In this document: in pieces, positions 2,969 through 60,215 of the stretch
Position numbering within the stretch: position 1 is the stretch's first letter
Layout of the letters: every line of letters starts with the position of its first letter
From: Obrimoposthia wandeli
Lineage: Eukaryota
DNA length: 64,000 nt
Reading direction: 5' to 3'
Assembly (NCBI GenBank): GCA_977020255.1
Contig: CDROCS010002743.1
Span: forward strand, 186,001 to 250,000
Notes under the pieces: model-generated
What the model saw: only the letters and a program-made list of their open reading frames with translations
Database searches by the model: none
Told to the model about the DNA's origin: nothing
Translations under genes and position numbers: made by a program

Positions 2969-3472
2969 GTCAGTACTGTCAACTTGTTTTCCTCAGAAAA
3001 TCAATTTCGTTTGAGTAAGTTACTCAATGAAATTACTTTATTTCATAAAATGTTGTCTTCTGTATTTTCGTCTCTGCTTCTTTAATAGTATAGGTTTGAA
3101 ACATGTTTCTGTATATATAACTATCAGTTTTGTAATCTAAAAAGCTAGATGATTTTTACGTTTTACACGCACCAATCAGTATGATAAAAAAATAGTTTAA
3201 TTGTTTTTAAAGAAATATATATTTTTATAATATGTTTTGTTTCAAAGTTTCAAATCATCATATATTTTTGAATGTTTTAGAAAAGAAAAGATAACAAACA
3301 AAAACTGATTATACTAGTATGTAATTTCGCTTATTCGAAATTTGTATCCTTATGTTTTGTTAAAAAAAAACATTTGAAATAACTCTGGATAAATAAATCC
3401 TAGATATTTAACTGCATGTATTAAGTTCTTCTGGTAGTCCGCGTTTCGATTGACATTGATTCTGGCTTATAG

Positions 3473-3754
3473 GTACTGCGATATGATGCAGCACGTGGCA
3501 AGGACATCCTAGTGCCGGGACTGTATGCGGCAGGTGAGGCGGCAAGTGCTTCTGTCCATGGTGCCAATCGTCTTGGCGCTAACTCGCTGCTGGATCTTGT
3601 AGTGTTTGGTCGTGCCTGTGCTCTCACCATAGCTGAAGACCCGGATAACAAGCCCGGCCAGAAGCTGCCATCGTTGCCTGCCGATGCCGGGGAGGCCTCC
3701 ATACAGAATCTTGACACTCTTCGACACTCTAATGGTAGCCACTCTGTCGCAGAT
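3473..3754 (+). CDS. SDHA: SDHA exon
   Basis: [37 protein letters not shown]. tag|GTA...GAT|gtacgt, 282 nt, in frame with neighbours. Confidence 0.97.
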
Positions 3755-5514
3755 GTACGTTAACTAATCAAACACATACAATAAATATCAACATTTTACA
3801 TTTTAATATTAGTGTCACAATAAACAAGAAATTTTAAGAAATTTTAACTTCCATTCAAACAATAAACGAAACATTAAATTATAACTGATTATTATGTGAT
3901 AACTATACTTAAGGCTATTGTACCATCATAAAGTAGAATTAATGGTGTACTCAAGCCTGTGTAAATGTTATTTAAAGAAAAAAAAATATACAACTTTAGG
4001 TACTTGATAAATCAGTGTAATTTCATGTTTTTACCAGCGTGTTTACTGTAACTATTAAATTGATATACATGTTATATAGGCGATAGTGTTGGTTAAACGG
4101 TAATTGTTGTGTTTTATCTAAAATATATTTATAAAGCCAAAGGTAATTCTTTCTAATGTTTTTGAACGCCTGTGTCATTTAGTCCTATGGCCTCCCTCTG
4201 ATCTGTCATGGGTGTATCACGTAAATATATTTTATAAAATTTTTTTGAGGATGTAATTCTAGAAAACTATATTGTAATTAAATATTTAGAATTTCGATTT
4301 AGAATCTTGTAAAACGTATAAATAATCAGTTGAGTTTTTGTTAGAAAAGTGTTTTTTCGAAAGCAGACATTTTAAATAATCTGATTCACTGAGATATATT
4401 TTGTTGTGTACTCTGCAATTTTGTAAATTTTATATATATATTTTCACATTGGGGTGTGACCAACCACACACTAATTAAACAGTTGACTAGTTACTTAATG
4501 TACATAATTTAGAAAACGATTGATACTTCTACAGCTTCTAATTTCGCTTCAATCGATATTTGTTTCCATTTTTTTACAGAGGTATTCTTAAAAATAGTAT
4601 ATATTTAATCAAAATATCTAGTTATTATATACATTATCTTTAATATATTATATTTCTAAGTGGATAAATTCAATAATTATTGATCTCTGAATATCTGATA
4701 TAAAAATATTGTATGAGTAGGTAGAAAGATGGAGTCTAGATCACTTAAGCCCCCCCTTTGTGCGCACACAATGTTAAAGGATTTCACAACATAAGGGTGT
4801 CACACCATAAGGGTATATGTTGCCTCACCATAGTGATGACACACCATACAGGTATATGTTGACTCACCACAAGGGTGTCTTGCCACACCATAAGGGTCTG
4901 CCTCAGAAAGGTTAAGATAAGTGGGAGGGAGGAAGGGTCAAGTGATCTAGTTTCCACCCTTCTTTTGGTCAACCACTAAAGGGTTGTAGTCGTCCATAAT
5001 TCAAAGGGTCAGACTCAGTTTTGACTTGAAGGTTTTAAGTTATGGTCATGACCGTCTAGGGTCAACCAACATATCTAAAGGGTCATGGTCGTCCATAAAT
5101 CAAAGGGTCAGACTCAGTTTTGACTTGAAGCTTTGAAGGTATAATTGAGGTCAACTATGGTTGGCCATTACATCTAAAGGGTCATGGACGTCCATAGGTG
5201 AAAGGGTCGGGTTAAATTTTTTTTTTTTAAAATATCAAGGTTTTAGTACATGGTTGGAATCATATTTAGAAAGTTTTAAATGTCAAGGTTTGAATACATG
5301 GTTGTAATCATCTTTAGAAGACGAATTCATCCATATAGGTATGGTCGTCCATAGATGAAGGGTTAAAAATAGTTGGAATTTCATAGTTTTAAGTACATGG
5401 TTGTATTTGTCAACATAAATCGAGTTTAATCATGTAAAAATTTTATGGTCGTTCACAAGGTAAGGGTTAGATTTGGCATAAGTTAAGGAATTATATAGTA
5501 ATTAATCAATTATT

Positions 5515-5822
5515 CTATGTGAAAGTTAAAGTTCACTCTTATCAGTTAAGGAATGTATTACGTAATAACACACACACTATTCTATGTGAAAATTTAGGCT
5601 AAAGTTCACTCTTATCAGTTAAGGAATGTATTACGTAACAACACACACACACACTATTCTATGTGAAAATTTAGGCTAAAGCTCACTCTTATCAGTTAAG
5701 GAATGTGGTACTTAATAACACACACACTATTCTATGTGAAAATTTAGGCTAAAGTTCACTCTTATCAGTTAAGGAATGTATTACGTAATAATACACACAC
5801 TATTCTATGTGAAAATTTAGAT
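5515..5822 (+). repeat. ~61-bp tandem repeat inside left TIR (about 5 copies); mirrored at ~7410-7630 in right TIR
   Basis: Unit TATTCTATGTGAAAATTTAGGCTAAAGTTCACTCTTATCAGTTAAGGAATGTATTACGTAATAACACACACAC repeated head-to-tail. Confidence 0.9.
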
Positions 5823-6037
5823 CAAAGTTTTTTCCAGGCTTATGCATCTAAAGAATTATGATAAAATTTCTTTAAATAACTTAAATTATATATTAAAATA
5901 AAAATAAGAAAGAAGTCAGAGAATAATACAAAATTAAACATATTTATTATGTAATTTCATAATGTCATCTTCAAACTTAAGTGAATAACATTTGCAAAGT
6001 AAGAAAATCCCTTCTCTATACATTCTTTCCGATTCAA

Positions 6038-6900
6038 CGACTAAGTTACAGCGGAATTAATAGAAAAAAAAACACAAAGTTTGACGCTATGAATGAAAAT
6101 TAGTAAAATATTAATGTATTTGAATAATTGAATGATAGTTTGAATAAATGAGAGTTAGATTGAATGTAAATGAATACAAGTATGAATGCAAATGAGTCTT
6201 AGCAAGTGAATGTAATTTAAAAATAAGAGTGTCGAGAGTATGATTGAATGAAAGTGTTATTTAGACTATATGTAAATTAAAATATAGTTTTCGTATAAAT
6301 AAAAGTTATATTAAGTACCAGTTATATTAATAACAAGTAAGCAACTATAAGAAGCAGTGCTACTGAAGTATGTTAAAAGTTAAAATAACTAAGTTATAGT
6401 GAAATTAATAGAAAAATACACTAAGTTTGACGGTATAAATGAAAATTAGTAAAAATATTAATGTATTTGAATGATAGTTTGAATAAATTATAGTTAGATT
6501 GAATGTAAATGAATGCAAGTATGAATGCAAGTGAATGCAAATACATGCAAGAGTCTTAGCAAGTGAATGTAATAGGGGAAAAAATAAGAGTGTCGATAGT
6601 TTGATTGAATGCGAGTGTAATTTAGACTATAAGTAAATTAAAATATAGTTTTCGTATGAATAACGTTTTGTAAAGTTACAGTTAGATTAATAACAACTAA
6701 GCATCTATAAGAAGCAGTGATACTGAAGTATGTTAAAAGTTAGAACGACTAAGTTACAGCAAGATTAATAGAAAACAACACAGAGTTTGAAGGTATGAAT
6801 GAAAATTAGTAAAATATTAATGTATTTGAATGTAATTGAATAATATTTTGAATAAATGTCAGTTAGATTGAATGTAAATGAATGCAAGTATGATTGAATA
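6038..6900 (+). repeat. ~350-bp tandem repeat (2 full copies plus a partial) in the core of the TIR element
   Basis: ACTAAGTTA(C/T)AG..GAATTAATAGAAAA...GAAAATTAGTAAAATATTAATGTATTTGAAT recurs at ~6040, ~6390 and ~6748. Contains TGAATG(C/T)AA micro-repeats. Confidence 0.85.
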
Positions 6901-8894
6901 GCAAGTAGCTACAAGTACAAGTAAGAAAGAATACGATTGCAAGTACGAATGTCAATTATGAATGAAAATGAGTAAATATATTAATAAATTGATAGTTTAC
7001 TGTCGTTTACAATAAATTGACTTGTAAACATAATACATTTATGATTAATAAGTAAACTACTTGAAGTTTTTTGTTGTAAATTATATTTCAGTAATAACTT
7101 ACAACATATTAAACTGAATATATGCAAAAATATATTATTGCAAAATATATTGTTTTTTTCTATTAATTCCGCTGTAACTTAGTCGTTGAATCGGAAAGAA
7201 TGTATAGAGAAGGGATTTTCTTACTTTGTAAATGTTATTCACTTAAGTTTGAAGATGACATTATGAAATTACATAATAAATGTGTTTAATTTTGTATTAT
7301 TCTCTGACTTCTTTCTTATTTTTATTTTAATATATAATTTAAGTTATTTAAAGAAATTTTATCATAATTCTTTAGATGCATAAGACTGGAAAAAACTTTG
7401 ATATAAAATTTCACATAGAATAGTGTGTGTATTATTACGTAACACATTCTTTAACTGATAAGAGTGAACTTTAGCCTAAATTTTCACATAGAATAGTGTG
7501 TGTGTTATTAAGTACCAAATTCCTTAACTGATAAGAGTGAACTTTAGCCTAAATTTTCACATATAATAGTGTGTGTGATTACGCTATACATTCCTTAACT
7601 GATAAGAGTGAACTTTGACTTTCACATAGAATAATTGATTAATTACTATATAATTCCTTAACTTATGCCAAATCTAACCCTTACCTTGTGAACGACCATA
7701 AAATGTTTACATGAATAAACTCTTAATATATTGACCAATACAACCATGTACTTAAAACTATGAAATTCCAACTTTTTTAACCCTTCATCTATGGACGACC
7801 ATACCTATATGGATGAATTCGTCTTCTAAAAGATGATTACAACCATGTATTCAAACCTTGACATTTAAAACTTTCTAAAAATGATTCCAACCATGTACTA
7901 AAACCTTGACATTTAAAACTGGATTTTGTCTTTAGCCCGACCCTTTGATTTATGGACGACCATACTTTATGAATGAATTCACCTTCTAAAGATGATTCCA
8001 ATCATGTACTAAAACCTTGATATTTTAAACTTGATTTTGATTTTAGCCCGACTCTTTCACATATGGACGTCCATGACCCTATATATGTGATGGTCAACTA
8101 TAGTTGACCTCAATTATACCTTCAAGTCAAAACTGAGTCTGACCCTTTGATTTATGGACGACCATGACCCTTTAAATATGTTGGTTGACCATAGACGGTC
8201 ATGACCATACCTTAAAACCTTCAAGTCAAAACTCTGCCTGACTCTTTGAATTATGGACGACCACAACCCTTTAGTGGTTGACCAAAATAAGGGTGGAGAC
8301 TAGATCACTTGACCCTTCCACCTCCCCCCTATCTTAACCTTTCTGAGCCAGACCCTTATGGTGTGGCAAGACACCTTTATGGTGTGACACAATTATGTTT
8401 AGTCAACATATACCCTTATGGTGTGACATCACTATGGTGAGGAAACATATACCCTTTTGGTGTGACACCCTTATGTTGTGAAATCCTTTAACATTGTGTG
8501 CGCACAAGGGGGGTTAAGTGATCTAGACTCCATCCTTCTACCTACTTGTATGGTATCTTAGTTGAAAAAGACATCGGGATATTTAATGCATCTTATTAGA
8601 ATATCTTATTATTGATTTTAACCTACAAAATTTAAAAAGTACAATATTTTCCAAATTAATATCTTTACTCCTTCGTAATGCCTATTTAATACTTAATGTT
8701 GAGATTTATTTCTGGAAAACATCATTTACTAATTATATTGAGTAGTACATAAAATGTAAATATGGAATTATGTTTTATAAGCTTAGTTGACGTTTTTAAA
8801 TTCATGTTTATATGTTTGATATTTTATTAAATAAGTCTTATTGTTTTGAAATTTTTCTATGCCTTTTTTCTTACTATATGTTTATATTAATCCT

Positions 8895-11800
8895 GGTTAT
8901 GATTTCAATCGTAGACAATTCAAAAGAGTCAGATTCTACAAATACAATATATTTATACACACACAGGGTATCTAGGAACAAATATTCTCGATATGATATT
9001 TCCAGCTTCTGATTATTTAACTCTCCCCTTCACTATTCAAACTTCACATCTTCAGTCGTTTGATTCTCCCGAAGAGGTTTCCTGTTGGAAACTGAATTGA
9101 TACCTGTAATGGACTTAAAATTATATTATTCGATATGGGCCTTCATACTTGGGACTATTAATGCTTCTTAATTGAGTCCTTTTTAGCGAGCACCTATTCA
9201 TTGACTTCAAATATCCTCTCCCGTCTTCTTTCATTGTCTAACGTCTCTAACCTTTCAGCTGCAGTTTGTTGGTTCTTCCTTACGTATTAAATGATATTTT
9301 ATTTATTGTTTGTTGTTGCATTTGATGCTTAATTTTTTCTTTTTCTTTCATAAATGATTTTAAATAGGGAATGTTTGAAGAACTATTTACTGTTACATTT
9401 ATAGAAAATTCAATCTGTGGCAATAAATCGTACCAGCATTTTCCAATTTTAGTAGACGCTATTGTCGTAACAATCATATCTCTAACTGTACGTATAGCTC
9501 TTTCTGATGTTGATATGGTGCTGTAGCTACTGTTCAATATCCAATTTTCGTAGCCAATTCTGAAAATAATTTCAGTCAAATATTTGTCCTCTATCTGTTA
9601 AAAGGCTCTTAGGTTTCCCAAATTTAGATATCCAATTTGTCTCGAGTGCTTTAAAAATTGTTATTTCATCTTTTGTAGTTACTGATAGCGATACCAGTTT
9701 ACTAAATCTATCGATTACTATCAGCATATATTTCTTTTTATATCTTTGTTCCTTCAAATCGAGAACTATTTGATCTTTAAAAAAATAACTAAAGGAATAT
9801 ATATTTTGTTTCTTCTGCTTGTTTCAATTTTTCTTTTGGCACATAAACGCATTTTGATATGCATTCTTTTATTTCTTAAAAGTTAAAAGTTCAAATAAAA
9901 GTTATCATCTAGGCGACAAAGATATTGGTGAATTTTATTAGCGTTCTTCGGAGTTATGTAATTAAATCTGTAAAATGTTGTTGCTAATAAAAGAGTTTAA
10001 GTTATTCTTTTATCTGATAAATCCCACTTATTTTGCGTTCTTCTGATAAATCCTTACTTTCTAGTTGGAGGAAAACTTTAATTTCTTTTACGTGAATATC
10101 TTGTTGTTTTTATCTTATCTTACTCAAGAAGTGGTCTTCATTTAGTGAGGGAATATATCTTATTTTAGATATATTCTCTTGTGCATATAAATGTTTAGTT
10201 TCACACTGAGCACAGAATGTTTCATCCAATCTTGACATGCCATCGGCATTACCATGGTCTATATCTTTACGATGTTCTAATTTAAAATGAAATTCTGATA
10301 AATTTGCCAGCCATGTTTGAAATTGAAGACTGATTGGATTTTTCATCGTTCTTAAAAACACTAATGCTTTATGATCTGCTCTTGCCAAAAATTCTGTTCC
10401 ATATAAATATTGTTTGAAATGCATAATAAATTCGTATACTGCTAAAAATTCTTTTCTGGTAACATAATATCCTTTCTCATGGGAAGTCAGATGTTTAGAA
10501 GCGTATGCAATCACTTTTTCGTTTCTCATTTCATCCAGTTGGCTCAATACTGCCTCAATTGCACCAAATCTTGCGTATGTATCAATTATAAATTTTCTAT
10601 TTCACATGGGAAAATTTAACATGGGAGCTGTTGTTAATTTTTCTTTCAGGGGTGCAAAACTTGTTTTACAATCCGGTGACCATTGTATTGACTTTTTTAT
10701 CTCCGGACCCCGCTGCATATAGTGAAGCTGCAATATTTGCATAATCTTTAATAAATCGTCAATAATAGTTTTTCATTCCTAAAAATGATTTTAGTTTTCC
10801 GCTACAATCTGTTTCTTTGAAATTATAATTTCGTTGACTTTCGACTGATTTGTATGTATTCCGCTTTCTGTTATGGTATGACCTAGGAATTTTAACTGTT
10901 TCTGACCAATGTAACATTTATTAGGGTTTATTTTGAGGCCTGTCGCTGCAATTCTTTTGAATACTTCTCTTAATAATTTATAATGTTCTTCTTGGTTGTT
11001 ATTATAAACAAGGATATCATCCAGATATACAATTGTTCCTTTGAACAACTAACTATCCAATATTTTATGCATCAAACTCTGGAATGTTGCCGGTGCTGTA
11101 GCCAACCCAAATGGCATGCGATTGAAACAAAATTGTCCTTATTTTGTACTGAAAGGTGTTTTGCTTTTGACTCTTTCTCTAGATCTATCTGATAATAAGC
11201 TTGTCCAATATTTAATGTCGTAAATATTTTAGCATTACCTAGACAATCGAACAAGAGTTGTGCATCCGGTATGGGAAATGTAAACTTTTTGGTTACAGCA
11301 TTCAATTGTCTATAGTCAACACACATTCAAATTGTATTGTCTGGCTTCTTCACAATGACCAATAGCGAGTTCCAAGGACTTTCACAGCGCCTAATTACGT
11401 TTACTTTGAGTAAATTTTCAATCATTTCATCAACTTGGTTTTCTAAATGCATCGGTTGTCGTCTACGATTTTGACAAATTGGATCGGCAATAGTCTCAAT
11501 CTTATGAGTGACAATTTTGGTACATGCTAGATCAAATTTAGAACACACAAATATTTTCCCAAATTCCTCAATATAATGTCCTAGAATTGAGTCTATCGCA
11601 TTTTAAAAAATTATATATTTTATCTGTTCTTTCTTTCGAGGAAAACGTTTTCATCATGCAAGACGAGTCAAAATTACATACTCCCTGCAGCTTCATCTTA
11701 AATGTTTTCATTGTATCAATTCCAATAATAAATTGTGATTTAATTACTTCTACAACGATTATTTCCAAAACTTTCTCCTTTCCATTCCATAACACTTTAG

Positions 11801-14443
11801 TATTACACGTACCCACAGGCTGTTGATGATTATTCGAAAAATCTCCACTCAGATATAAATGACTCTCTCATTTTGTGACATCCTAGTTTATTTCAACAAT
11901 CCTTACTCATTACAGTAACTGATGCTCTGGAGTCCTACAGCATTTCTACATCTACATCATTAATCTTCATTATACTTAATTCGCGACCATCATTCTTCAT
12001 ATACATATTTTCATTCCTCTTTGGTTCTATATGATTGGTTCCCACCGACGAAATGTGAGCAATTGGAAGTATCACCTTTCCCTGATTAACACCATGTATT
12101 ATCATGTCGTCATTATTACAATCTTCTAAATCTTGATTATTTTCTTCCACTTCTTCTGTTATACAAAGTACTCTTGAAGTTTTATGTGGGTTCTTTAAAA
12201 GATAGCAGTTGTTGAAATTGTGACCTTTTTTTCTGTAAATCAAACATTTGTGATTGAGAAGACATTGATTTCAGAAATGACCTTATTCACTACAACAAAT
12301 ACATGTTCCTGGCTGAAGTTCTTCCCTTTTTGTGACAGGTAGTCCCTTAGCTAAGTTATATTTTCTTTTAGCTATTTGTTTTAAGGAAAACCTTGACATT
12401 TATCTCCTAATATTGTGATTTTGGGCGTCTATATTTATGTCTATTTTTTCTTCATTAACATAATTTCTTTGTTCCTGATGTATTGATACTGGTACTGATA
12501 CTGGTTTCTTCGTATTGTTTGAGAAATGACTGTTGTCAGGACAGTTGAATTCTCTTTTCACAGTATTTGCATACGTATTATGCATTGGTGCAATAACGGT
12601 ATTCTTATTCTCGATTTTGCTTTACACCTTTGCAAACGCCTCTATTTCTTCTTTTTGCATCTGTGGTTTTAATAAGAACTGCTCCTTCAGTTTTTCACTT
12701 CTTACTTTAATCTAAGCGTCAGTCAGCTCATTTTGCTAACATTATTTTTCCATCATAGCCTCAACGAGTTTTTTTCACTCTAATGCTGAACTCTGAGAAA
12801 CGCTCGCCTTCTACTTGCTTCACTTTTGCAAGTTCGCAAACTTTGTCAACTATGGATTTCCTTACTAGGAAATTGTCTTCAACTTTTTTTTGACTTCGAT
12901 ATCTGAATTTAACTTTTACTGGCATCTTTCCATAATAATCCAGCTTCTTCGGTCAACAGCAACTCAAATACATCCCCAATATTAATCTTATTTGCGTCAA
13001 CCCATTCTCCTATATCCTTTAACCATTGTTACTTTGAACTCATTTCATCATATCTTCTTATGTTATACTGGAACATTATTATTTACTCTTTAGGCATAGT
13101 CTTGATGATATTCTTCTTTGATTGACTTCTCGTCACTACATTTATTTCGGCGTGGTCGCCAGTTATGTTTTCTATTGTAGGCATAATTCAAGACTTTAAT
13201 TTCATAACACAATTATATTCTGAATATTAAATATCAGTTTTTTAACAAATTATTGAAAGTAAGATAATTCCGGTTTCTGATTATATAACATTTCTTTACG
13301 ATGTTCTATTTTAAAATTAAATTCTGATAAATTTGCCAGCCATGTTCGAAATTGAAGACTGATTGGTTTTTCATCGTTCTTAATAACACTAATACTTTAT
13401 GATCTGTTCTTTCCAAAATTCTGGTTCATATAAATATTGTTTGAAATGCGTAATAAATTCGTATACTGCTAAAAGTTCTTTTCTGGTAACATAATAGCCT
13501 TTCTCATGAGAAGTCAAATGTCTTGAAGCGTATGCAATCACTTTTTCGTTTCTCATTTCATCCAGTTGGTTCAATACTTCCACAATCGCACCAAAGCTTG
13601 CGTCTTTATCTATTATAAAATTTATATTTCTAAGTCTAATATGAGAACTGTTAATTTTTCTTTTAGTAATGCAAAAACTTGTTTTACATCTGGTGACCAT
13701 TATATTGAACCCGCTGCATATAGTGGAGCTACAATTTTGGAATAATATTTAATAAATAGCCGATAATAGTTTGGCATTCCTAGGAATGATCTTAGTTTTC
13801 CGCTACAATCTGGTTCTTGGAAATTTCTGATTTGTATGTATTCCGCTTTAATATATTATTTATAAAAAGCGTCAGTAGCTCGTATTTGCTTACGTTGTTA
13901 TCCATCATGGTATTAACGAGTGTTTTAAAACTCTTGTGCTGAACGTTGAGAAACGTTCGCATTCTAATTGCTTCATCTTTGCAGTTAGCATATTTTATCA
14001 ACGTTGTATTTCTATTCTAATTTTTTTTTCAAGCCCTTTTTTTACTTCAATTGCTGAGTTAATCGCTTCACTGGTATCCTTCATAATGCAGCTTCATCGG
14101 ACAACAGTAAATCTAATGCATCCCCGATATTAAGATCATTTGCGTTGACCCAGTCTCCTATATCTTTTAACCACTTTTCTCTTTCCTTTGAACTCGTTCT
14201 ATAATATATTCTTATGTTGTACTGCAACATCATTCTAATCTCTTTTGAATGAGACTAGTGAATATTCTCTTTGATTGACTTCTCGTCAATACATTTATTT
14301 CGGCGTGGTCATCAGTTATGTTTTCAATCGTAAACATAATTCAAAATAGTCAGATTCTACAAACACTATATTTATACATGTATACAGAATATTTATATAC
14401 AAATATTCTCGATAGGATATTTCTGGCTTCTGATTACATAACT
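8895..14443 (-). mobile_element. Degenerate Ty3/Gypsy LTR retrotransposon with three ~130-bp LTRs
   Basis: LTRs at 14314-14443, 13161-~13290 and 8895-9022 (AGTTATG...CATAACT termini in the intact copy). PBS TGGCGACCACGCC at ~13149-13161 (-). PPT GAAGGGGAG at ~9024-9032 (-). Two broken CCHC knuckles (~12200-12310), PR (L*DSRAS), RT (MCVDYRQLN, VYLDDILVY), RNase H (VIAYASKHL...RADHKAL...HGNADGMSR) and IN (LIVIDRFSK...LLTDRG...ERAIRT). Many stops and frameshifts. Confidence 0.92.
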
Positions 14444-14476
14444 ATCACAGTTAATTTGCTAAACGTCGTTGCGCAG

Positions 14477-30549: not shown

Positions 30550-31254
30550 TTCACCAGGACTCTTAACTTATGCAAAACCATAGGGATATGGTTGAACTAA
30601 ATTTTGATAGACAAATACAACCATGTAATGAAATTATCAAGTTTGTTCCAAATCTGAACCTTAATTTGTTGACGACCATAAAATTTTTACATGATTAAAC
30701 ACACAATATTTTGACAATCCCAACCATGTACTTAAAACTTTGAACTTTTTTACCCTTTCATCTATGGTCGACCATACCTTTATGGATGAATTCGCATACT
30801 AAAGATGATTCCAACCATATAATAAAACCTTGATATTTTAAACTTTATTTTGTCTTTATCCCGACCCCTTCATTTATGGACGACCATAACCCTTTAGATG
30901 TGATGGCCAACCATAGTTGAACTCAAATATACCTTCAAGTTATAACTGAACCCAACCCTTTCATCTATGGACGACCACAACCCTCTGGATGTGTTGGTCA
31001 ACTATAGATGGTCACAACCATATCTTCAAACCTTTAAGTCATAACTGAGTCCGACCCTTTCATCTATGGACGACTACAACCATAAAAGATCACGATCATA
31101 CCTTCAAACCTTCATAACCTTTCTCAGCCAGACCCCTATGGTGTGGCAAGCTACTCTTGGTATGGCGTAATCACTTTTTGGAGTGCACACGCATGAATTT
31201 GTTAGTGTGCGCACACGGGGGTCAAGTGTTCTAGACTCCGTCCTTCCCCCTACT
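30550..31254 (+). mobile_element. Solo diverged right-hand TIR of the same Polinton-type family as 4716-8546
   Basis: Colinear with ~7660-8546 (TATGGACGACCAT motifs, GCCAGACCCT..GGTGTGGCAAG, GTGTGCGCACA). Ends CTAGACTCCGTCCTTCCCCCTACT. Confidence 0.85.
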
Positions 31255-49158: not shown

Positions 49159-49411
49159 TTAGTTGAAGCGGGCCGATGCGTGCTGACGCTTGACCAGAGC
49201 GAGTTTAGGCGCGATTTTATCGAGCGAGGCTGGCAGGCGGTCGTAGGGCCGGGCCTGAGTACCATGCAGCACCAACACCCACTCGCTCAATACCGCCTGA
49301 CCCAGCACATCCCCGCTGTTGTCACTGCCACCAGACACGTCTAACATCACCGTCAACCGCCACCGACCGCGCGGGTTCTCGCCCCACGTATGTGTCGTCA
49401 TGAATGGCCAT
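49159..49411 (-). CDS. PCSK2: Prohormone convertase 2, terminal exon (end of P domain)
   Basis: cag|A TGG; WPFMTTHTWGENPRGRW...EWVLVLHGTQ...SARFN*. Confidence 0.95.
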
Positions 49412-51019
49412 CTGCGCAGTAGATAATCAAATAATAATATATAATCAAAAGTGCCTGGTATTAATAACTTCTTTAAAAGCTTTTTGTGGGTATCAATGGT
49501 CTCGTCATTTCTAGTGTCATTATTTAATATCATACTGCCTCATTATTTAATCTTTATTCATTCAAGTTTCTATTTCTATTAGAAGTTTCCATCAATTACA
49601 TATTATTGAAGTACTCAGACTTTAAATATTTTAGAATTCAATTAAGAATATTTTATTCTACACAAACGTATTTCTTCATTAACGTCTAATATATGCAAAT
49701 TTCTTTAACCAGAAAATCGTACAAAGTTAATAAGAATTTTTTAAAACTATGTATCAACTTATAGGAGAGTTTTTTGAACATCGAATATCTATAGTCTGAT
49801 CTAAACGAAATTATAGAATGTGTTCCTATTATCCTAAGTATTTTTAAATATTGTTTATTTTTAAATTATTTCACAAAATAAATTTATACAATTGAACGCA
49901 TTTCTAGTCTATGGAGAAGCCTTGTGGTAGTCAATGTAAAAATGCCATTCAATCTGAGCATTCATGGAAGACTACACCCATCAACGAGGTTTTAGAGCAA
50001 TCAATACCCTAAAAGTTTGACTATAGTGTGTGCATTATATATAGAAAACTGATGCAATAAACGATATACATGAAAGTCTTATATTTTGAACTGATCCAAT
50101 ATACAGTGTATGATTTTAGTCTTTCGAAAGCCATTTAAGATGCACACATATTAATAATCCATTCACAAATTGTTGAAAATTTTACTTTTCATAGCTCTTT
50201 TCCTTTAGTGAACGAAAAAAACCATTGATCATCCTTTCCCCTAGTTTTGAATGTTGGCCTTGAAGCTTTTGTTGGCAGATATTCGTAATGGCTCTAATAT
50301 CTTGTAAGGTATCCAGGTATCACTACAATAAAGGAATTTTTCTATTTTTCTTCTTTCCTTCAAATGTGACGAGGTATCATAGCTAAGAAGAGACTTTGGT
50401 TTGATTTTAGCAATTAATTTGATTTGATTTCAATTGCTAAAATTATTTAAAATCACATTTTTGGTAATAAGATCTATCCTGTAAACGAACAGTTATCATA
50501 AGGTAAAATCATAACAAGCTTGAACCAGGCCTAAGCCTTTTGTAAACTCCATCCCTTCTTAGCGAAAACAAAATAAGCCCGTAACGGCTTTAAACTCATT
50601 TAAACCATACAGATCTGGAATTGTTTTGGACGTTCGTCAACCAACATTGTTTAACGCTTCTCGTTGTGAATTGTATTTTGTGTTAACCTATTTTATTATA
50701 ATTTGAGTATCGTTCTTACATTGTATATTTGTTATCGTAATACGATATTATTCGATTAAGTATTGTTTTGAAGATAAACCTAGACAATTTATGATCTAGA
50801 GAATAGCCCTCGGCCTTTAACCGAAAAAACATATATTTTTAGTAGTCATCGACTCACTGATTGATCAATGATTTACAATAAAGTAGATGCATAAAAACAC
50901 ATAACTTCAGATAATGTCTGATAATAAAAGAATAGGCCATCCATACAAGACATATCACTCTAAAGAACTCACGCACCAGAGGCTTCCCCAAGAAGTATTT
51001 CAACTCTGGTCCCAATACG

Positions 51020-51480
51020 TATACCCATATCTTCTAAAGCCACATTAAAAATAGCTGCAGCAGCTCTGAAACTTACACATTATCTATCAACCGTTATCGA
51101 TAAATTTTTATAAGAATATCTGTTTTGCTTATTTTTTGCAACTCAAAATCTGGAACAAAGTGATTGTCCCTTTCCATGTTTTTCACTTGAGTCTTCTGAC
51201 ATTTCAAAAGTATCTAGTTCACTGTACTTCATTCGTACTTTCTTTTTTATTGTTCATTTTCTAGTAGAAGTTGCTCTGTCGATTGGCCCAAGCTGTTTTT
51301 TCTTTCATTTGTCCAAAAAATACATCCCATTCATTTATTGGTGATCTTACTTTGCGTCGGCAATCTTTTCGAGCCATTTTTATCATTTCTTGGGCAAATG
51401 TTGAACATCTGTTGAAAATCGTGAAACTTGTCATTTCTTCTTTTCAGTGGAACTTTATTTAATTTTATTCCCGAGGCATG
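51020..51480 (-). mobile_element. Relic of an unassigned DNA-transposon protein
   Basis: Minus strand gives KVPLKRR...FQQMFNICP...EWDVFFGQMKEKQLGPIDRAT and VSFRAAAAIFNVALEDMG, a pattern recalled from invertebrate transposon-associated ORFs. Confidence 0.45.
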
Positions 51481-52042
51481 TAATCTTTCAACTTTGCTTG
51501 AAATTCCTTCAAGGGAAATACGAGGGAAAAAAAACTGATTACAAATATTTTCTACATCTTTTGAATCTCTTCTGTAAATTCCTTTAGAAATTGTATGGCT
51601 TTTGATAAAATTTCTTCTCTATTTAAAACGAACAGATAATGTCGAATTACATCAGCATTTGCCGATATCATAGAATCAGGAAACGATGTTGGCTGTTCAA
51701 AAATATAATTTCAATATATTTGCTTCTTATAGACCTTTTGAAATAATAGATTCAAAAATTGGAATTAAAAATTATATTGATTAAAAATAACTTTATAATC
51801 GAACAAAATATATATGGACACTGCAAATGTTTGAATGTTGAAGGAGGAATGGTGCAAGGAGTACAAGGGATAAAATATCTTTAATATTTTGTTATTTAAT
51901 TAAGAGAACAGTACAGAACTCTTCGAAGGATGCTAAATGAGGAAAATAAATTAAAAAATATCAGCTTTGACCATTCTTAGTGCGTATCAAAAACTAAAAT
52001 TTAGGGCAGTTGCCTAGACACACTGAGAGAGAAGATACTAAC

Positions 52043-52327
52043 TTGGTGAAGCCCTTGCCACCGGCGTCAGCGTCGCGGGGTCGTCTCCCGAGCAGCATGC
52101 TGGTGGTGCCCATCGGTGAGGTCAAGAACAATGTGATGTCGCCTCGGCGTGAGGCCGATAGTGTCACGAAGGCCTGCACGTGCTCTAAGAACCTCACACG
52201 ATGTCCGGCCTCGGCACCACAGGCGTCTGTGTCCACCTCCAGCACTAGGGCGCGCGTGGCATTTACCCGGTAGCGCTTCGTGATGCTACCTGCGATGCAG
52301 TGAAAGCGCTCCGGCACGTTCTGCCAA
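52043..52327 (-). CDS. PCSK2: PCSK2 exon (P domain)
   Basis: tag|T TGG...ACC AA|gttagt, 285 nt. WQNVPERFHC...FLEHVQA...SRRGDITLFLTSPMGTTSMLL.RRPRD. Confidence 0.96.
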
Positions 52328-53569
52328 CTATGGGAGGAAACTTTGTTAGGAGTGTTTGCATAGCATCGATACTTTTATTTAAGCAATAAATTTAATTTAT
52401 CTATAATTTATGAATCAATGTCGAAAGGAGCGCCAAAATTCGCTGTTTAATAATTGACTAATTAATGTCTAATTGTGTGAACGATTTTATTAATAAAGAG
52501 CTCCATATATATTATTTTGGGTCTTTAATATCTATTTATATTTATATATAGTCTACTCGTTAATCCGATTGTTGTCGTTTCCAAAGAAATATGACAGATT
52601 AACATTATGTGGAATATAACATTTTGTATTTATCAGAAATTACATTGAAATTCATTTAAATTCAAATATATTGAAATAGTGAGTATTACATATTTGTCAC
52701 AGATTTATTAGTCGCATCCAGTGTCGAATAAACGCAGTGGCTTCAGTGGCTGAGACCCAGGGACCTCCAGTAATTGAAGGGCTTTCAGATATTAGGCGGC
52801 AATTCTTTTCAATAGAAAGTTGCTGTACTCAAATGAAAGCACTCATCTTTATAGGTATTTGCAGTTGTTTAAAATATGATAAAGAGTATGATAGAAAATA
52901 CTTTTTAGATTAAAAATTAAAAAAATATATATATTGTTTGTGATGCATTTTATGTTTTATGCGAGTTTTAATGTGTTTAAAAATGTTTATTTTTATTCAT
53001 TAACGATCGTGTATCGATCGGTAATTGGCAGCTTAGCTGTGTAATTGAAATTGATGGTTGTATAAATAAATCGATACGAAATCTTTATCGTGTTATCTCC
53101 TCTTATCGCTACTTCAATACCATCAACTAACGAATTGTCTTACTATTGAACCTGCTATATATATGGATCTATACAAAAATACAGACAGAGCTTCAACCCA
53201 CATTATTAGTGTATTTATAGAACAATCATTGGACTTAGTACAGCATTTCATTTTCTGTATATTCACATTCCCCTAAACATTTCTCTACATTATACCCACA
53301 AGGATAACAATATTAATAGGAAAGTTAAATAGTTACATTTTTGCGTTGTGTGAGAAGGAAATTGGAATGAGAAAACGTTTTAATGCAATACATTGTATCA
53401 CTTACAATGCGCATGTGTATTTTCTCCTTCTATTTACAGTGCAAACAGCATATTTTATAAATAAATATATGTATAATTGCAGTGCAGTCGCCACCTACGT
53501 AGGAAAATACTTGCAATTAAGTGCTACTTCTGAATTTTAATGTGCCATTATATCGTCTAGTCATTGATT

Positions 53570-54188
53570 CCACGCACAAATAGCCCTGAAGATAAACGTG
53601 TGCTTAATGATCACTAATGCAACTAGTGAGAGAAATTTCTCAATGCTGAAACAAATAAACAATGAGCTCAAATCAACTTTGACCTAAACGCACCTGATGT
53701 GGCTGTTATATCAGTTGAAAACAATATACTACAAAATTTGCAGTTTTCAGATGTCTGGCGGGTGTTGGCAATAAATTTCGTAAAGCAAATATGATAATTA
53801 TACATTACTTACAATATTATAATTCTTTTGCTTTTATTTATGTCGTATTACACTGGCAAACTAGTCTAAGTCTAAATACAAAGTCTACAGATGTCAGGTG
53901 AAAAATTGCATAATTCAATTAATGTTAAGTTGATTTAATTTTCAATTACTGTAAACAAAAGAAAACTCCTTTTACTTTTTTAATAACATGCATAATGACA
54001 TTATACAAAATAAGCAGCTGTATTGTAATAGCTTACAAAAAAACGTTTACTCAAAAAGTTGATTCAGGATTATTGTTACCATATTATCGTAACATGGTTA
54101 CCAATAAATTAAAAATATTATCAACGTCCAGGTAGGGGTCTCGCTGAAACTGTAGACCAGGACCCCACAATGTTATAATCTGGCCCTG
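53570..54188 (+). mobile_element. hAT transposase C-terminal dimerisation-domain relic with right end
   Basis: IALKINVCLMITNATSERNFSMLKQINNELKSTL...AVISVEN. Terminus ATAATCTGGCCCTG (revcomp CAGGGCCAGATTAT). Confidence 0.75.
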
Positions 54189-54619
54189 AATATAACGCTG
54201 TAATTCTCATTTTGTAGATACATTTAAAATCTGTGTTCATATGCTGAATCTTTGATGTCATATTAGGACGTGTATGTCAATTCAAGATGCCTTGTTGGCT
54301 CTTTAAAATGTCGCTTATTGTCATTTGAGCAATATTGATTCCAAATTCGTATGAAACATTTTCTTTAACTTGTAATTTTGTTGCTGATATGTTTATTTTT
54401 GTAGTTGTGAATTTTATTTTTATTTCGCTGTTATTCCGGTACATTTTCTCCTTTCATTCACTAAAGAAGTTAAAATTCAAAATAATTTAAAAAATAATAA
54501 ATTCAAACAAATAATCATTTTGAGATTTTGTTCGATTACATAAGTGTACAAAAAAGGAATGTGTCATGAAACAATAGAGGGTGATTTTTTAGCCATGAAT
54601 TTTAAAATTTAACTCATTT

Positions 54620-54900
54620 TTGTATCACATCAACTTTCTTCTCAGTGTGGAGTAGTCTATGTGTGATTCGAGAAAATGCATTTTATACTCATGCAAAAGC
54701 CAAGATCAATAAAACTTTGCATCATATACTTCACAATTTGTAAATATTGCGTTACCCAAGACATTTTCACATAATTCTGTGAAAAGAGACCGGGGATTTC
54801 TTTGCTTCCATTGAGCACATCAATTATTTGAGGAACAATAGAATCTTCGCATGTTAATTTTCCACACTGATTCGTGAGAACTTTGTCGGCAAATACTTGA
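54620..54900 (-). mobile_element. CMC/Chapaev-like transposase relic
   Basis: Across frames: IVPQII, ENVLGN, LGFCMSIK, MHFLESHIDY, matching the GPQI..FLGN..LGxxMSxKxHFLxSHLD pattern. Confidence 0.65.
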
Positions 54901-55528
54901 ACATATCACCAACTTTATTCAGAGCATTGTCAAAGTTTTTCATAAACAAAGATTTTCATAAACTTAATGTGCAAATGAGGCAGTAGTACTTTATTTATAA
55001 ATTTAAACAAATTTAATTGATTTATTTAAAAAAACTATATGTAATAGTCAAAAAATGAAAATAGTTTTAGAATCTGCTCTAAAATGCTTATAGAATATTA
55101 TTATCATTTTCTGTAAAACACAATTATGCATAATAGTGTAATTGCAAGCATTTTAAAGCTTGTTCATGAAGAGTTTTTTGAATAAATCTACTTGGAATCT
55201 CATTGCATTGCTTATACATACTTCTTTCATCTGACCATTTCTAGGAATATCCTTGTCTAGAATATAATAAATATTAACCACATTTTCCAACTAGTTTCTC
55301 TGTATTGAATAAAGACGTCTTCGTTTCGATTTTGGTGATCGTTTCCATGTATGTGCCCTATTTCGAAGCAAATATGAAATAGAACTAACGTAAAAAAGCC
55401 AGTTTCGTTAGCCAAATGGTATTACATTTTTAGATTTGTAGAAAAGATATCTTTCAGGTTTATTTAGAAGTCAAAATCAAAGTGCGTATTATATAATTAG
55501 ATTTTTATGGTTACTGCGCTCAGTTTAC

Positions 55529-55948
55529 CTGCGCGCAACTCGGACAATATCGCCAGCATCGAGGACGCCGTAACCGAATAGATGGTTGAACTCGAGGCCG
55601 GCACCGTTAATGGTCCAGTTGTGTCGTCCAGCGCGGTCGTGCAAGTGATTGCGCTTGCTGGTGAGCACAGCCAGGTGCTGCACATCTCTCCAGCCCAGAC
55701 CGGAGTTGGCCTCCAGAGCCAACGCAAACACACCAGCCGCTTCTGGTGCCGCCGCCGAGGTACCAGAGTGATGTAGCGTGCATCTGCCGTACAGGTCCAC
55801 AGTGCCCACTCCAGCATCGAGGCTGAACCAGGCCTTGCCATTGGAGAAGGTGGAGGCCAGTGTGCTGGAGCACGACTCGTCATAACTCGCAGTTTCTCCG
55901 TCATTTGTGGCCGAGTTGATGCTCACCGTCCACATGCTCGCTGCGTAT
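55529..55948 (-). CDS. PCSK2: PCSK2 exon (catalytic Ser)
   Basis: cag|A TAC...CGC AG|gtaaac, 420 nt. YAASMWTVSINSA...YDESCSSTLASTFSNG...HSGTSAAAPEAAGVFALALEAN...LEFNHLFGYGVLDAG. Confidence 0.97.
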
Positions 55949-56454
55949 CTGCATCGACAAAGGGAGAGAGATATTTCCATCACATTTATGCTCAGAGGGA
56001 TCATATAACGGTATCAAACACATTTTGATAAAATATAGAGTTCTTCCACGAATCAATCAACTCATTATCAATTGTAAAATATAGAATATTGTATTGGCCA
56101 ATGAAAATTGGTTAAAGAAAATGACAAATATTTACTAAAAGGTTTGTTCACTCTATAAACTTAACTTGAATTTATTATACAAAATTTTTGAAAAACTGTT
56201 GTTAATGGCAAACATCAGTTTGTCAAAATGCAATTCATTGTATGATAAATGCGAATTTCATGTTTATTTAATAATTGAACTGTTGTCAGTTTTAAAATGT
56301 TTTGAATAAATAAACAAATTCTAAATGCAATTCTAAATCGTTTTAAAGATAGATAATATTAAGTTAAGTATTTGACAAACTTTAGCTACTTACAAATTAT
56401 AAATGCATAATGTCTAACAAAAAACTTAGTTTGGTTATCAGGAGAGATTTACAG

Positions 56455-56500
56455 GTCACGACAGTTCAGTGGTAAAATGCACGGCTTGCAAGTTGTTCAA
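56455..56500 (+). repeat. Truncated tRNA-derived (SINE-like) head
   Basis: GTCACGACAGTTCAGTGGTAAAATGCACGGCTTGCAAGT is homologous to 57728-57800 (-). Has an A-box and a TTGCAA loop. Confidence 0.5.
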
Positions 56501-57727
56501 TTGCGGTAGGTAATTAATTATTACGATAGTTTTACATAAAATCATAGAAAAACAACATTTTAATGGTTCATATCAGTTAATGTGTACTGCGTCGCAATTT
56601 TGAAACCATATAATCTTATATTGAACAAAAACTATTCGTTATGTGTCATTTTAAATTAAAAAAGTTAGATTTTACGTACATAGTATAAATCCAAATTGCA
56701 TTTTTTCTGGCACGTAATTAGCCGAGGAAAAAATTTGATACATTTAATTTATCAATACTTATCTGAATTATGAAGCAACAATTAACATGAAATGAACAGT
56801 AAAAAATAATCAAGGATATTAAATTAAAACACAAAAAGATCTCCGAAGTTTCTGCAGAATGAAATTATTTCGTTCTTCTTTCCTCCATTTAGATAAAATC
56901 AAGGCAGTTACTGCTGAAACATCAAATAACGAATATCAGAGACAGGAATACCAGATTTTGAAAATTCTAATGCGTGACAATTTTCTTAAAATATTCTCTA
57001 TCGGCCGTTATTACGTTGAGAATATAATTATTTAAACGTTTATTTTCCATACAATAACATTATTTACATTGTTATTGGTATAAATTCTTACATTTTTTAC
57101 TTTTTAATGTTTTGTTTGAAAAGCTTTAAAACAAAAGTGACACAAATATAATCTTTGTTATAGTTATATTCGTTATTACAATAAATTTAATTTATTCCTA
57201 TGTGTATTTAAAGTCATATAAAAACAACAATTTTTGCCTTGTTGCGGGATGCAGGACAAACAAGTCTGGCATATCTGGTTTTCGGACAAAATTGTAGGAA
57301 ATCAGTCTTCTTTAAACTAAAAAAGAATACTTTTATTTTTTACAAATTTGCGGATTGTTTCGATTGTTTTTAACATGCATAGTTAAATAGATATGTAACC
57401 TAAACAAAAATATGAAAACATTTGAAGACATTTTTTTAGTAATTAATAAAACAAACAAAATTTAAATATGCATGACATTTGAAAAAATATTTAATGGGAT
57501 AAATTTTTATATAAAGGATATTGTTTGAAATATATTTTGTGTTTCAAATCTTTGATCTCAATTGGCGACACATTAACGATATCCAACTATTATTTAGTAC
57601 ATATCAAAATAATTTTTTATATTTTATAATTCAAAAAGGTGTTGGTGCTAAAAAAATGGAATAGCTAATTCATATTCTAATTCATATAAGTCCATACTAC
57701 TTTCTGTTGTTAGAACCTAAAATTAGT

Positions 57728-57800
57728 TGCCATGACTGATAATTGAACCACGGGTCTCACTACTTGCAAATTACGTATTCTACCGCTGAACTATTGTGGC
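57728..57800 (-). pseudogene. tRNA-Cys(GCA)-like pseudogene or SINE head
   Basis: GCCACAATAGTTCAGCGGTAGAATACGTAATTTGCAAGTAGTGAGACCCGTGGTTCAATTATCAGTCATGGCA has A- and B-box-like motifs and a GCA loop, but poorly paired anticodon and T stems. Confidence 0.55.
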
Positions 57801-57977
57801 TTTAATTCTCTACCATTAACCCAATTCGGGATTTGTGAATGGGGATTGAGCATTTATAATGGCAATAACTGATTTTTAGGAAATATTTATCTTATCAATC
57901 TTCCCCAACATTCTAAAACTTCCGAGTCTTCTTTTCATAGATCCACACGATATCTTTGTGTAATTAGTGAGTCTCAC

Positions 57978-58237
57978 CCATCGCAGTTGCAGTCATCAGC
58001 CGCACCCCCGTCTCCAGAAGCCCAGACATAGATGCTTCCCTTGCCACCGCGACCCTTGTTGACACCATCCACTATGGCGCGCATCGTCTCGTTCCTGGGC
58101 CCGTCCACGGTGCGGCCATCGTCAGTGGGACCCCAGCTCGCAGAGTAGATGTCAATGATGTCACGCTCGTGGCTCATGGCAGCCGCCTCGATCAGGTCCG
58201 TCATGTATGGCTGGTCCAGCATCCGCAGTCCAGCAAT
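57978..58237 (-). CDS. PCSK2: PCSK2 exon (oxyanion-hole Asp)
   Basis: tag|ATT...GAT GG|gtgaga, 260 nt. IAGLRMLDQPYMTDLIEA...DIYSASWGPTDDGRTVDGP...SIYVWASGDGGAADDCNCDG carries the PC2-specific Asp. Confidence 0.97.
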
Positions 58238-59788: not shown

Positions 59789-60215
59789 CTTGGAGTTGTA
59801 GGCGACCCCGACGCCACATATGTCGTTATCACGGGCTGCTGAGATTTCGCCAGCGCACCGGGTACCGTGGCTGTTGAACCAATCATCAGTATAGCGCGGG
59901 AACGGGTATGGATCGTTGCTACTGAAGTCATAGCTAGCTTCGGCGTTGTAATTGGCTGACAGATCCGGATGCAGGTAGTCGATACCGTCGTCCATTATTG
60001 CCGTTGTCACTCCCTTCCCGGTGATTCCCTGCTGCCAGGCGTCCAGCACATTGAGGTCAAGGTCACGCACACCTTCAGCTTGCCCGGTGTTGTGGATGTA
60101 CCACTCCTTGGTGAACAGCGGGTCCGTAGGCAGCGGCAGAGTGGGTTCTGCGTTCGCTGTCCCAGTTGCAGCGTTACCCACGTGTGACTTGGGTCGTCCA
60201 GGCACACCTTTCTTC
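59789..60215 (-). CDS. PCSK2: PCSK2 exon (catalytic Asp and His)
   Basis: tag|G AAG...AAG|gtgagc, 427 nt. DPLFTKEWY...TAIMDDGIDYLHPDL...PRYTDDWFNSHGTRCAGEISAARDN.ICGVGVAYNSK. Confidence 0.97.

Follow-up and report, generated by a model that had tools for sequence, protein, structure and literature searches.

A gene-less palindromic Maverick/Polinton family in Obrimoposthia wandeli with a likely origin from one end of its parent

The genome of Obrimoposthia wandeli contains a family of palindromic, gene-less elements that probably arose once, when the polymerase-side end of a Maverick/Polinton was copied over its other end, and that probably spreads with the polymerase and integrase of this parent acting in trans. 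The copy studied here lies within a window of 64,000 nucleotides (GenBank assembly GCA_977020255.1, contig CDROCS010002743.1, positions 186,001 to 250,000), and all coordinates below are those of the window. This insertion, found in an intron of the SDHA gene and noted in a preliminary description, is one of thousands of copies and not a one-off.

The Element and Its Host Intron

The element occupies positions 4716–8546 (3,831 bp), starts with AGTAGGTAGAAA, finishes with CTTCTACCTACT, and thus has the termini AGTAG...CTACT. The 6-bp target-site duplication (TSD) is perfect, as had been claimed, with TGTATG at 4710–4715 and again at 8547–8552 on the forward strand. No stop-free frame exceeds 73 codons. 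Neither pPolB nor a retroviral-type integrase is encoded, only a pPolB remnant of 25 codons being present, and genes for capsid, packaging ATPase, and protease are likewise missing.

The host gene is SDHA, whose best solved-structure match is a succinate dehydrogenase flavoprotein (E 3e-66), with Pfam FAD_binding_2 upstream and Succ_DH_flav_C downstream. The intron runs on the forward strand from GT at 3755 to AG at 14476 (10,722 nt); its donor lies 961 nt before the element and its acceptor 5,930 nt beyond it. A decayed LTR-retrotransposon-like insert is found in the same intron.

The left arm (4716–6070, forward strand, 1,355 bp) and the right arm (7153–8546, reverse strand, 1,394 bp, whose inner end includes 34 bp from the first 360-bp unit) make up 72% of the element, in agreement with the 3.83-kb gene-less element, its ~1.35-kb terminal inverted repeats (TIRs), and the TIR share of about 70% described before. 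Pairwise alignment of the arms, suggested at that time as a check, gave 1,207 identical columns out of 1,263 (95.6%), with 56 differing sites and ten gaps of 1–79 nt, most of which fall within subterminal tandem arrays; the two arms have diverged by 2.5–4.4%.

From its outer end, the left arm is homologous to the parent's own TIR over 4716–5903, with subterminal tandem arrays of 16/39, 99, 48, and 73 bp. Comparison with parents identified the next segment (5904–5963, reverse strand) as the pPolB 3′ UTR, the stop codon (5947–5949), and the last 14 coding nucleotides. It is joined across a 223-nt deletion, with 3-nt microhomology, to a remnant of about codons 1131–1155 of the ~1,240 codons of pPolB (5964–6036, reverse strand), which in tblastn is 80–88% identical to the parent pPolB over 25 amino acids (E 3e-8 to 2e-6). 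The right arm carries a remnant with the same deletion junction (7187–7259, forward strand; tblastn match at element positions 2473–2544), followed by the last pPolB codons, stop, and 3′ UTR (7260–7319, forward strand; arm alignment and comparison with parents). Both arms extend past the TIR of the parent by ~130 bp, which takes them into the 3′ end of pPolB, and both have this single deletion.

The core of 1,082 bp had been described as tandem repeats only. This holds for 6036–6904 (forward strand), where a ~360-bp unit with 6% C on the forward strand is repeated 2.4 times in an array whose length varies across the family, but not for 6905–7152, which in the window copy is a non-tandem spacer with one 134-bp "tail" unit (7005–7138) that is tandem in sister copies. 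No clear source of the 360-bp and 134-bp units was found in the parent, the best matches being 29–35 nt, and comparison of the 360-bp unit and spacer with six parents (blastn, tblastx) gave only matches of 13–48 nt or of E≥1e-4. In all three copies inspected, a further pPolB piece of 35 nt is found on the inner side of the array; one of them has it twice, in opposite orientations. The exact core layout of the window copy was not seen in the other copies examined; the "core" is what remains of a palindromic arm that was once longer, the window copy having lost most of its right-hand array, possibly after insertion.

The Parent Maverick/Polinton

At all ten pPolB loci examined, sequence of the element's arm adjoins the pPolB 3′ end. 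Six parents were resolved end to end. They are 11,670–12,467 bp long with ends AGTAGGT(A/G)GAAGGA, have a perfect 6-bp TSD in five of the six, and carry genes for pPolB, an A32-type ATPase, an rve integrase with a chromodomain, and a candidate double-jelly-roll capsid-like protein (atlas score 0.97); a protease was not matched among the 10 parent ORFs scanned. Alignment of the window arm to the parents' non-polymerase end stops at element position 1188–1190 in all six, whereas at the polymerase end the match continues to 1251 and resumes at 1249–1321 past the 223-nt gap. ORFs for pPolB, integrase, and phosphatase adjoining some top matches were rejected as genes of the family; they belong mostly to nested Mavericks of other families, whose pPolB is 39–57% identical to the parent's, or to other retroelements.

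The element shares 5′-AG...CT-3′ termini and the 6-bp TSD with this resident, gene-carrying family, and homology in the TIR together with the pPolB remnant shows descent from it. It is a non-autonomous Maverick/Polinton derivative, as the earlier reading of a mini-Polinton had it, and the shared ends suggest that parent proteins mobilize it in trans. The further proposal that it retains only cis-acting signals simplifies too far, since the arms exceed the parent's TIR, pPolB 3′ sequence is left on both sides, and the core repeats have no clear parental match.

Family Size and Structure

The junction of the 223-nt deletion has 4,940 exact 20-mer matches in the genome, compared with 2,211 for undeleted pPolB ends and 2,054 for non-polymerase inner ends; the terminal 25-mers have 10,883, and controls gave 0. 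Copy number is at least equal to the parent's. One shared junction at so many unrelated sites with distinct TSDs indicates amplification as a unit after gene loss. Among the first 100 junctions listed, 17 inward-facing pairs within 12 kb and no outward-facing pairs were found. Copies range from 2.4 to 12.6 kb, with variable arrays in long, internally repetitive, length-variable inverted arms.

A perfect 6-bp TSD flanks 24 of 35 copies with two termini, and a TSD with one mismatch flanks 4 more, which speaks against a chance match at the window copy. Since the other 7 have no TSD and 4 of these have inverted flanks, some palindromes of the family are rearranged or misjoined; in one copy, the inverted flanks are at least 23 kb long on each side, with 99.2–99.6% identity.

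Origin from One End

The sequence on the parent's non-polymerase side (500 nt inside the other TIR) was matched by none of 28 TSD-verified copies. The deletion junction was present in both arms of 17 of the 28, a share inflated by the choice of many copies as inward-facing pairs; in the remaining 11, the junction was near just one end, the opposite arm being truncated inside the TIR in 9 and nested insertions interrupting the copy in 2. At 20 unselected loci from the top of the match list, the remnant was in both arms within 10 kb at 4 and the opposite arm lacked it at 4, while the other 12 could be placed in neither group. Because both arms carry the polymerase scrap and the same deletion, and in view of the parent ends, an origin of both ends from one parent end is likely.

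End-copying has also occurred independently in two gene-carrying copies, once in each direction. In one (G000:C35, 12,835 bp, TSD CAACAG), a 1,573-bp stretch of the polymerase end, containing pPolB codons 1089–1234, is present on each side, the two being 99.0% identical; the other (G000:C158, 13,776 bp, TSD GACAAT) shows the mirror event. These two are TSD-verified, whereas three further copies (C31, C55a, C55b) had no TSD in the examined stretch. Among the first 100 undeleted pPolB ends listed, 3–4 face inward and 2 outward, which is not significant alone.

Homogenization of the Arms

In 18 TSD-verified copies with two arms, divergence between the arms of a copy has a median of 1.2%, compared with 6.0% between copies, and none of 10,000 random re-pairings reached so low a value, a result that held when re-pairing was confined to copies of one junction variant. 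This final test left out 14 of 32 two-armed copies that had no verified TSD; with all 32, the values are 1.8% and 6.1%. Arms of one copy are thus closer to each other than to other copies, which indicates that arms are repeatedly homogenized. On a 286-bp segment, only 26 of 36 arms have their mate as the nearest sequence, and the window copy's two arms form no supported pair in the tree. A G/A variant at the junction was rejected as a clean lineage marker, as one copy (C299) groups with the G copies and another has both an A and a G arm.

These observations are best accommodated as follows. An internally deleted polymerase-side end that had taken up foreign repeats would have been duplicated through a template switch, after which either end could serve as an origin for protein-primed strand-displacement copying. 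The displaced strand would form a long panhandle, within which one arm acts as the template for rewriting its mate, so that arm identity is reset in each round while the arm boundary and array lengths drift. The parent's retroviral-type integrase would insert the product, leaving 6 bp, and the window copy's arms would have drifted by their 2.5–4.4% since. Replication by the parent pPolB through a panhandle is what we infer from these sequences, and homogenized arms are equally expected under gene conversion in the chromosome.

Alternative Explanations

A chromosomal route would keep the one-end origin and mobilization in trans but have the arms duplicated and homogenized by break repair or gene conversion, as proposed for Galileo, with integrase-only cut-and-paste and no copying by pPolB. 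Sequence data alone do not separate the two routes; the cut-and-paste element Galileo lengthens its TIRs with internal sequence and has tandem repeats in them, according to the parts of the source covered (PMC3573991), and the inverted duplication enters host flanks at 4 copies here, so that chromosomal fold-back may occur. On the other hand, the arms are more diverged where the TSD is degraded (mean 2.6%, n=3) than where it is perfect (1.2%, n=15), a small sample but one that fits arms starting out identical on insertion and drifting afterwards, and the end-copying in C35 and C158 lies inside perfect TSDs, which fits a pre-integration event without proving it. We consider the chromosomal route rather unlikely and the panhandle route the probable one.

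Three other explanations concern the window copy itself. That a single inserted Maverick gave rise to it by deletion at this locus only, the result being dead since insertion and not a mobile family, might be suggested by its diverged arms, its unmatched core layout, and a nearest other copy only 89–90% identical across the outer arm. However, the deletion junction is common to the 4,940 sites, the remnant/array junction has 382 exact matches, sister copies have their own TSDs, and a simple deletion would keep the non-polymerase-side sequence, which is absent; the idea is largely refuted at the family level and extremely improbable. Misassembly of the window copy is unlikely, and we find it barely credible that a fold-back read or haplotype misjoin made the second arm: the perfect TSD is direct, SDHA exons are in order across the element, and between the arms there are 56 differing sites and ten gaps, although no unitig spans the interior and other copies have inverted flanks, including the one of at least 23 kb per side. 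Unitigs of two runs, probably from the assembly's own sample, enter the arms from either flank at single-copy depth, by 28–30 and 23 nt, below the 31-letter rule for bridging. The assembly has no second SDHA haplotype, and among the rows listed for contigs of one sample, there was neither a joint across the element, as at an empty site, nor a loose end at 4715. Retention of the insertion for a regulatory role through intronic double-stranded RNA (editing, small RNAs, altered splicing) is very unlikely. The ~1.3-kb stem proposed earlier also appears in a predicted fold of the whole element, made with no shuffle control, which pairs 1,212 of 1,355 left-arm bases with the right arm; the predicted sense-strand duplex has an unbroken run of 232 bp, its runs of at least 30 bp adding up to 808 bp, and Polinton TIRs mediate RNA pairing at eri-6/7 of Caenorhabditis elegans, in the part of that report covered (PMC11414722). 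Against such a role, the identical structure occurs in thousands of copies, the intron also holds the decayed LTR-retrotransposon-like insert, the splice sites are 1 kb and 5.9 kb away, Rfam has no match for the element, and the window copy shows no sign of selection. The predicted duplex would thus be nothing particular to SDHA, and the lone insertion looks ordinary.

Significance and Comparison with Known Systems

Copying of Mavericks through a single-stranded, TIR-paired intermediate is a model, restated in PMC4046053, and not an observation. A genomic test of this model is provided by the present family, with its thousands of gene-less copies, one marked origin, and arms tracking by element, together with the independent end-copying in the parent; the family also delimits the sequence not needed in cis and provides an LTR-like arm clock for dating Maverick activity. 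If the proposed reading is true, the arm clock and recurrent end-copying would be population-scale evidence for the panhandle model. Such palindromes can also seed inverted duplications or misjoins in assemblies. The family also bears on genome size; in Dugesia, a Maverick expansion has been reported (bioRxiv 10.64898/2025.12.11.693146, as far as covered).

Among known systems, Mavericks/Polintons share the AG...CT termini with an AGT-type repeat, the 6-bp TSD, and long TIRs, which in vertebrates measure 46–1,447 bp according to the covered portions of PMC8097293 and PMC6431247, and the parent has their pPolB, integrase, ATPase, and a capsid-like gene. The window element differs in being gene-less, in a TIR longer than its own parent's, and in carrying polymerase-side internal sequence twice; the portions of PMC8097293 covered describe degraded copies and no gene-less families that have amplified. 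Both non-autonomous Polintons and the extension of TIRs are already known, each separately. Polinton-1N1_DR (PMC9341505), compared by name only, and the insect polintons of bioRxiv 10.1101/2025.02.07.637071 are mobile without polB, the latter having ~2-kb TIRs with capsid and protease genes twice in the text covered, whereas the present family has no gene at all, can be traced to a single parent end with a single deletion, and has a copy number at least that of its parent. A gene-less Maverick family of one-end origin was not described in the literature searched, which did not extend to early Maverick papers and Repbase reports, so that its absence from print is not established.

Galileo 2T/2RT copies of Drosophila mojavensis (PMC3573991) and the foldback element Tetris of Drosophila virilis (PMC4079207) are likewise gene-less foldbacks with a TIR lengthened by internal sequence from one side and with tandem arm arrays that can become satellite-like. 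Galileo is, however, a P-superfamily cut-and-paste element with a 7-bp TSD and no polymerase or capsid helper, and clustering of arms by element is not reported in the text covered. The present family has a 6-bp TSD and a Maverick parent.

In adenovirus panhandle repair, an analogous duplication of one end in inverted form takes place. Copy-back and snap-back defective viral genomes also have one end duplicated and inverted, have lost the coding center, and depend on a helper, but are transient products of infection and not a germline-integrated family of thousands of copies (AAV, PMC8235507; review, PMC13506859; both as far as covered). We tentatively raise the possibility, in itself doubtful, that the family is the germline-fixed counterpart of such a genome, a copy-back defective-interfering genome of an endogenous polintovirus, in which one template switch would have given rise to a gene-less satellite with two origins. 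The helper's protein-primed polymerase would copy this satellite through a panhandle, the helper's capsids might package it, and its copy number would by now rival that of the helper.

Structure of the element and its host site

The gene-less element lies where it was first placed, at window positions 4716-8546 (3,831 bp), with termini AGTAG...CTACT and the perfect target-site duplication (TSD) TGTATG on both sides. Inverted-repeat alignment sets the left arm at 4716-6070 and the right arm at 7153-8546. The two arms are the same in 1,207 of 1,263 aligned columns, and most of the ten gaps fall within subterminal tandem arrays of 16/39, 99, 48/111, and 73 bp. The preliminary description was correct in assigning the host gene as SDHA (the intron measures 10,722 nt) and in calling the element gene-less, as its longest frame is at most 73 codons. 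Its claim that the core contains only tandem repeats holds for 2.4 units of approximately 360 bp but not for the remaining 248-bp spacer, which is non-tandem. The array (window 6036-6904) is strand-biased, with 44% A, 31% T, 19% G, and 6% C.

The same intron carries a decayed LTR-retrotransposon-like insert (window 8896-14446) that ends 30 nt before the acceptor and contains RNase H domains (10113-10601 and 13392-13748) together with a 134-bp direct repeat (82%). Elsewhere in the window, 49159-60241 (-) holds exons of a putative subtilisin/proprotein-convertase-like gene, so labelled from its motifs.

The element is real DNA. Unitigs from two runs on one sample, probably the source of the assembly itself, enter at single-copy depth from both flanks (42 and 50 in X1); they extend 28-30 and 23 nt into arm sequence, below the 31-letter bridging rule, and no unitig of these runs spans the interior. 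Stronger support comes from three features: the TSD is direct and perfect, the order of the SDHA exons is maintained across the element, and the arms differ from each other at 56 sites. No second SDHA haplotype was found in the assembly, and no empty insertion site among the matches listed for the contigs of one sample.

A long stem in SDHA pre-mRNA had also been proposed, and a fold predicted without a shuffle control agrees, pairing 1,212 of the 1,355 left-arm bases with the right arm; the longest unbroken run predicted in the sense transcript is 232 bp. The same predicted duplex-forming structure is common to thousands of copies, and the element is far from splice sites. Polinton terminal inverted repeats (TIRs) are described as mediating RNA pairing at C. 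elegans eri-6/7 (PMC11414722).

The parent Maverick

The terminal 25-mer of the element has 10,883 exact copies in the 1.35-Gb genome. In 10 of 10 loci taken from the pPolB match list, arm sequence adjoins the 3′ end of pPolB; seven of these loci were extended, and both ends were obtained for six. These six end-to-end parents are 11,670-12,467 bp long and have the same termini as the element, with TSDs that are perfect in five and carry one mismatch in the sixth. On one side lies pPolB, directed outward, and on the other, outward, are a TBP-domain ORF, an A32-type ATPase, an rve-chromo integrase, a 338-aa ORF, a DJR-like capsid candidate (380-416 aa), and a 158-aa ORF. No recognisable protease match was present among the ten parent ORFs scanned. 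The TBP-domain ORF (3725-4255 and 3320-3805 in the parent stretches L062 and L074; Pfam TBP, E 1e-10 to 8e-12) is arranged head to head with pPolB.

The Maverick load of this genome is very high: a first-look search listed 24,442 pPolB candidates, of which 91 were scored, and two or more families are present. Other Mavericks often invade copies of the gene-less family or host them nested. Within one element nested in a family copy, a 1,186-aa frame that encodes two dual-specificity phosphatase domains (L045:5282-8839 (-)) adjoins an integrase gene.

Origin and abundance of the gene-less family

The arms originate from one end of the parent. Aligned with the non-polymerase end, the arm match stops at position 1188-1190 in all six parents, whereas with the polymerase end it runs on through the 3′ UTR, the stop codon, and 14 coding nt. 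A 3-nt microhomology marks the point where the arm then skips 223 nt, resuming at about pPolB codons 1131-1155, and the 360-bp unit follows. This deletion-marked remnant is present in both arms of the window copy, and all three copies inspected hold an extra 35-nt piece of pPolB on the inner side of the array.

Two termini were found in 35 of 57 junction-holding stretches examined, with TSDs that are perfect in 24 (two being mirror copies of one insertion), show one mismatch in 4, and are worse in 7. The 28 copies with good TSDs (2.4-12.6 kb) have the junction near both ends in 17, a share inflated by the selection of many as inward-facing pairs, and near one end in 11; among these 11, the opposite arm is truncated in nine and broken by a nested insertion in two. 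None of the 28 matches the 500 nt internal to the other TIR of the parent. Less biased samples gave 17 inward and no outward pairs among the first 100 junctions listed; at 20 loci among the first 22 matches listed, both remnants lay within 10 kb in four, the opposite arm lacked the remnant in four, and 12 were unresolved. Fuller copies, with arms of up to approximately 4 kb, read TIR, remnant, array, and tandem 134-bp tails followed by the mirror image. Because of this layout, the "core" of the window copy is read as the remainder of a left arm, the matching part of the right arm having been trimmed away. With parent-type ends and a pPolB remnant in a gene-less element, the mini-Polinton class first suggested was right in outline, and the family is very probably a non-autonomous Maverick family of one-end origin.

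The family is amplified. Exact-match counts, which are lower bounds with all controls at 0, gave at least 4,940 deletion junctions genome-wide (at least 368 with the parent's base at a variable site, as in the window copy), at least 2,211 undeleted pPolB ends, and at least 2,054 non-polymerase inner ends. Since each copy holds one to two junctions, we infer approximately 2,500-4,900 copies, which equals or exceeds the number for the parent.

Several relatives were also seen. At G000:C2386:115344-124000 (stretches L169 and L170), the unit, here approximately 370 bp, has expanded within one arm to more than 20 copies and resembles a satellite array. At window 30648-31254, adjoining an ATPase fragment, lies a solo remnant of a right arm from this TIR family, diverged to 67-86% identity. 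A 6.5-kb gene-less palindromic relative (L186:2988-9490), located approximately 5 kb upstream of where the window starts, has a variant terminus and a 174-bp array and is without the pPolB remnant.

Arm homogenisation and its possible mechanism

If the arms had been inherited separately from a founder, the left-right distance should be no smaller than the same-side distance between copies. On a 286-bp non-repetitive segment of 18 TSD-verified two-armed copies, the median difference was 1.2% between a copy's own arms versus 6.0% to other copies, and none of 10,000 re-pairings gave a within-copy value as low. The nearest sequence was the mate arm for 26 of 36 arms; the arms of the window copy, 2.5% apart on this segment, form no supported pair. 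Arm divergence was 2.6% in copies with worn TSDs (n=3) versus 1.2% in the others (n=15). Arms are thus reset per element, the signal being partial rather than absolute.

End-copying is recurrent, with one event in each direction in gene-carrying parent copies with perfect TSDs, where an end plus part of the last gene was duplicated onto, or next to, the opposite end. One copy (G000:C35:66991-79825; L148, L149; TSD CAACAG) keeps most genes and has the polymerase end on both sides; its duplicated ends are identical at 1,556 of 1,572 positions and include pPolB codons 1089-1234 without the 223-nt deletion. The other (G000:C158:71940-85715; L167, L168; TSD GACAAT) shows the reverse: a piece of the last gene from the opposite end stands on both sides.

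These features could be explained if pPolB and integrase act in trans on gene-less copies and if the displaced strand forms a panhandle within which one arm serves as the template for rewriting its partner. Such an intermediate is the standing model of Maverick replication (PMC4046053), and a jumping-back role has been described for end motifs (PMC8097293). The main rival is that chromosomal conversion or break repair, as proposed for Galileo (PMC3573991), accounts for the arms. Four copies bear on it: an inverted host-flank duplication is centred on a family copy at G000:C30:348395-398299 (at least 23 kb per side, 99.2-99.6%), and inverted flanks also occur on contigs C314 (1.1 kb), C21 (1.25 kb, as far as the end of the contig), and C38 (80 bp). 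They represent either fold-back duplication or haplotype misjoins, and so show that some process of this kind, or misassembly, occurs in this genome. The full account, with trans-acting enzymes and panhandle rewriting, seems to us likely.

Comparison with known systems

The interest lies in the family as a whole rather than in the SDHA insertion site. The literature searched, which did not extend to the founding papers, Repbase, or preprint supplements, yielded no description of a highly amplified gene-less Maverick family that stems from one end and is marked by a deletion; this negative is not proof of novelty. No non-autonomous Polinton was reported in Anolis (PMC3014272), and fragmented Mavericks occur in Mayetiola (PMC8504770). 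A non-autonomous Polinton is known by name, Polinton-1N1_DR (PMC9341505), and Tlr1 is sometimes regarded as one (PMC5499653). Some insect polintons with 2-kb gene-containing TIRs, and mobile polB-less copies, are reported in a preprint (10.1101/2025.02.07.637071), and foldback elements bearing arrays in their arms have already been described (PMC4079207).
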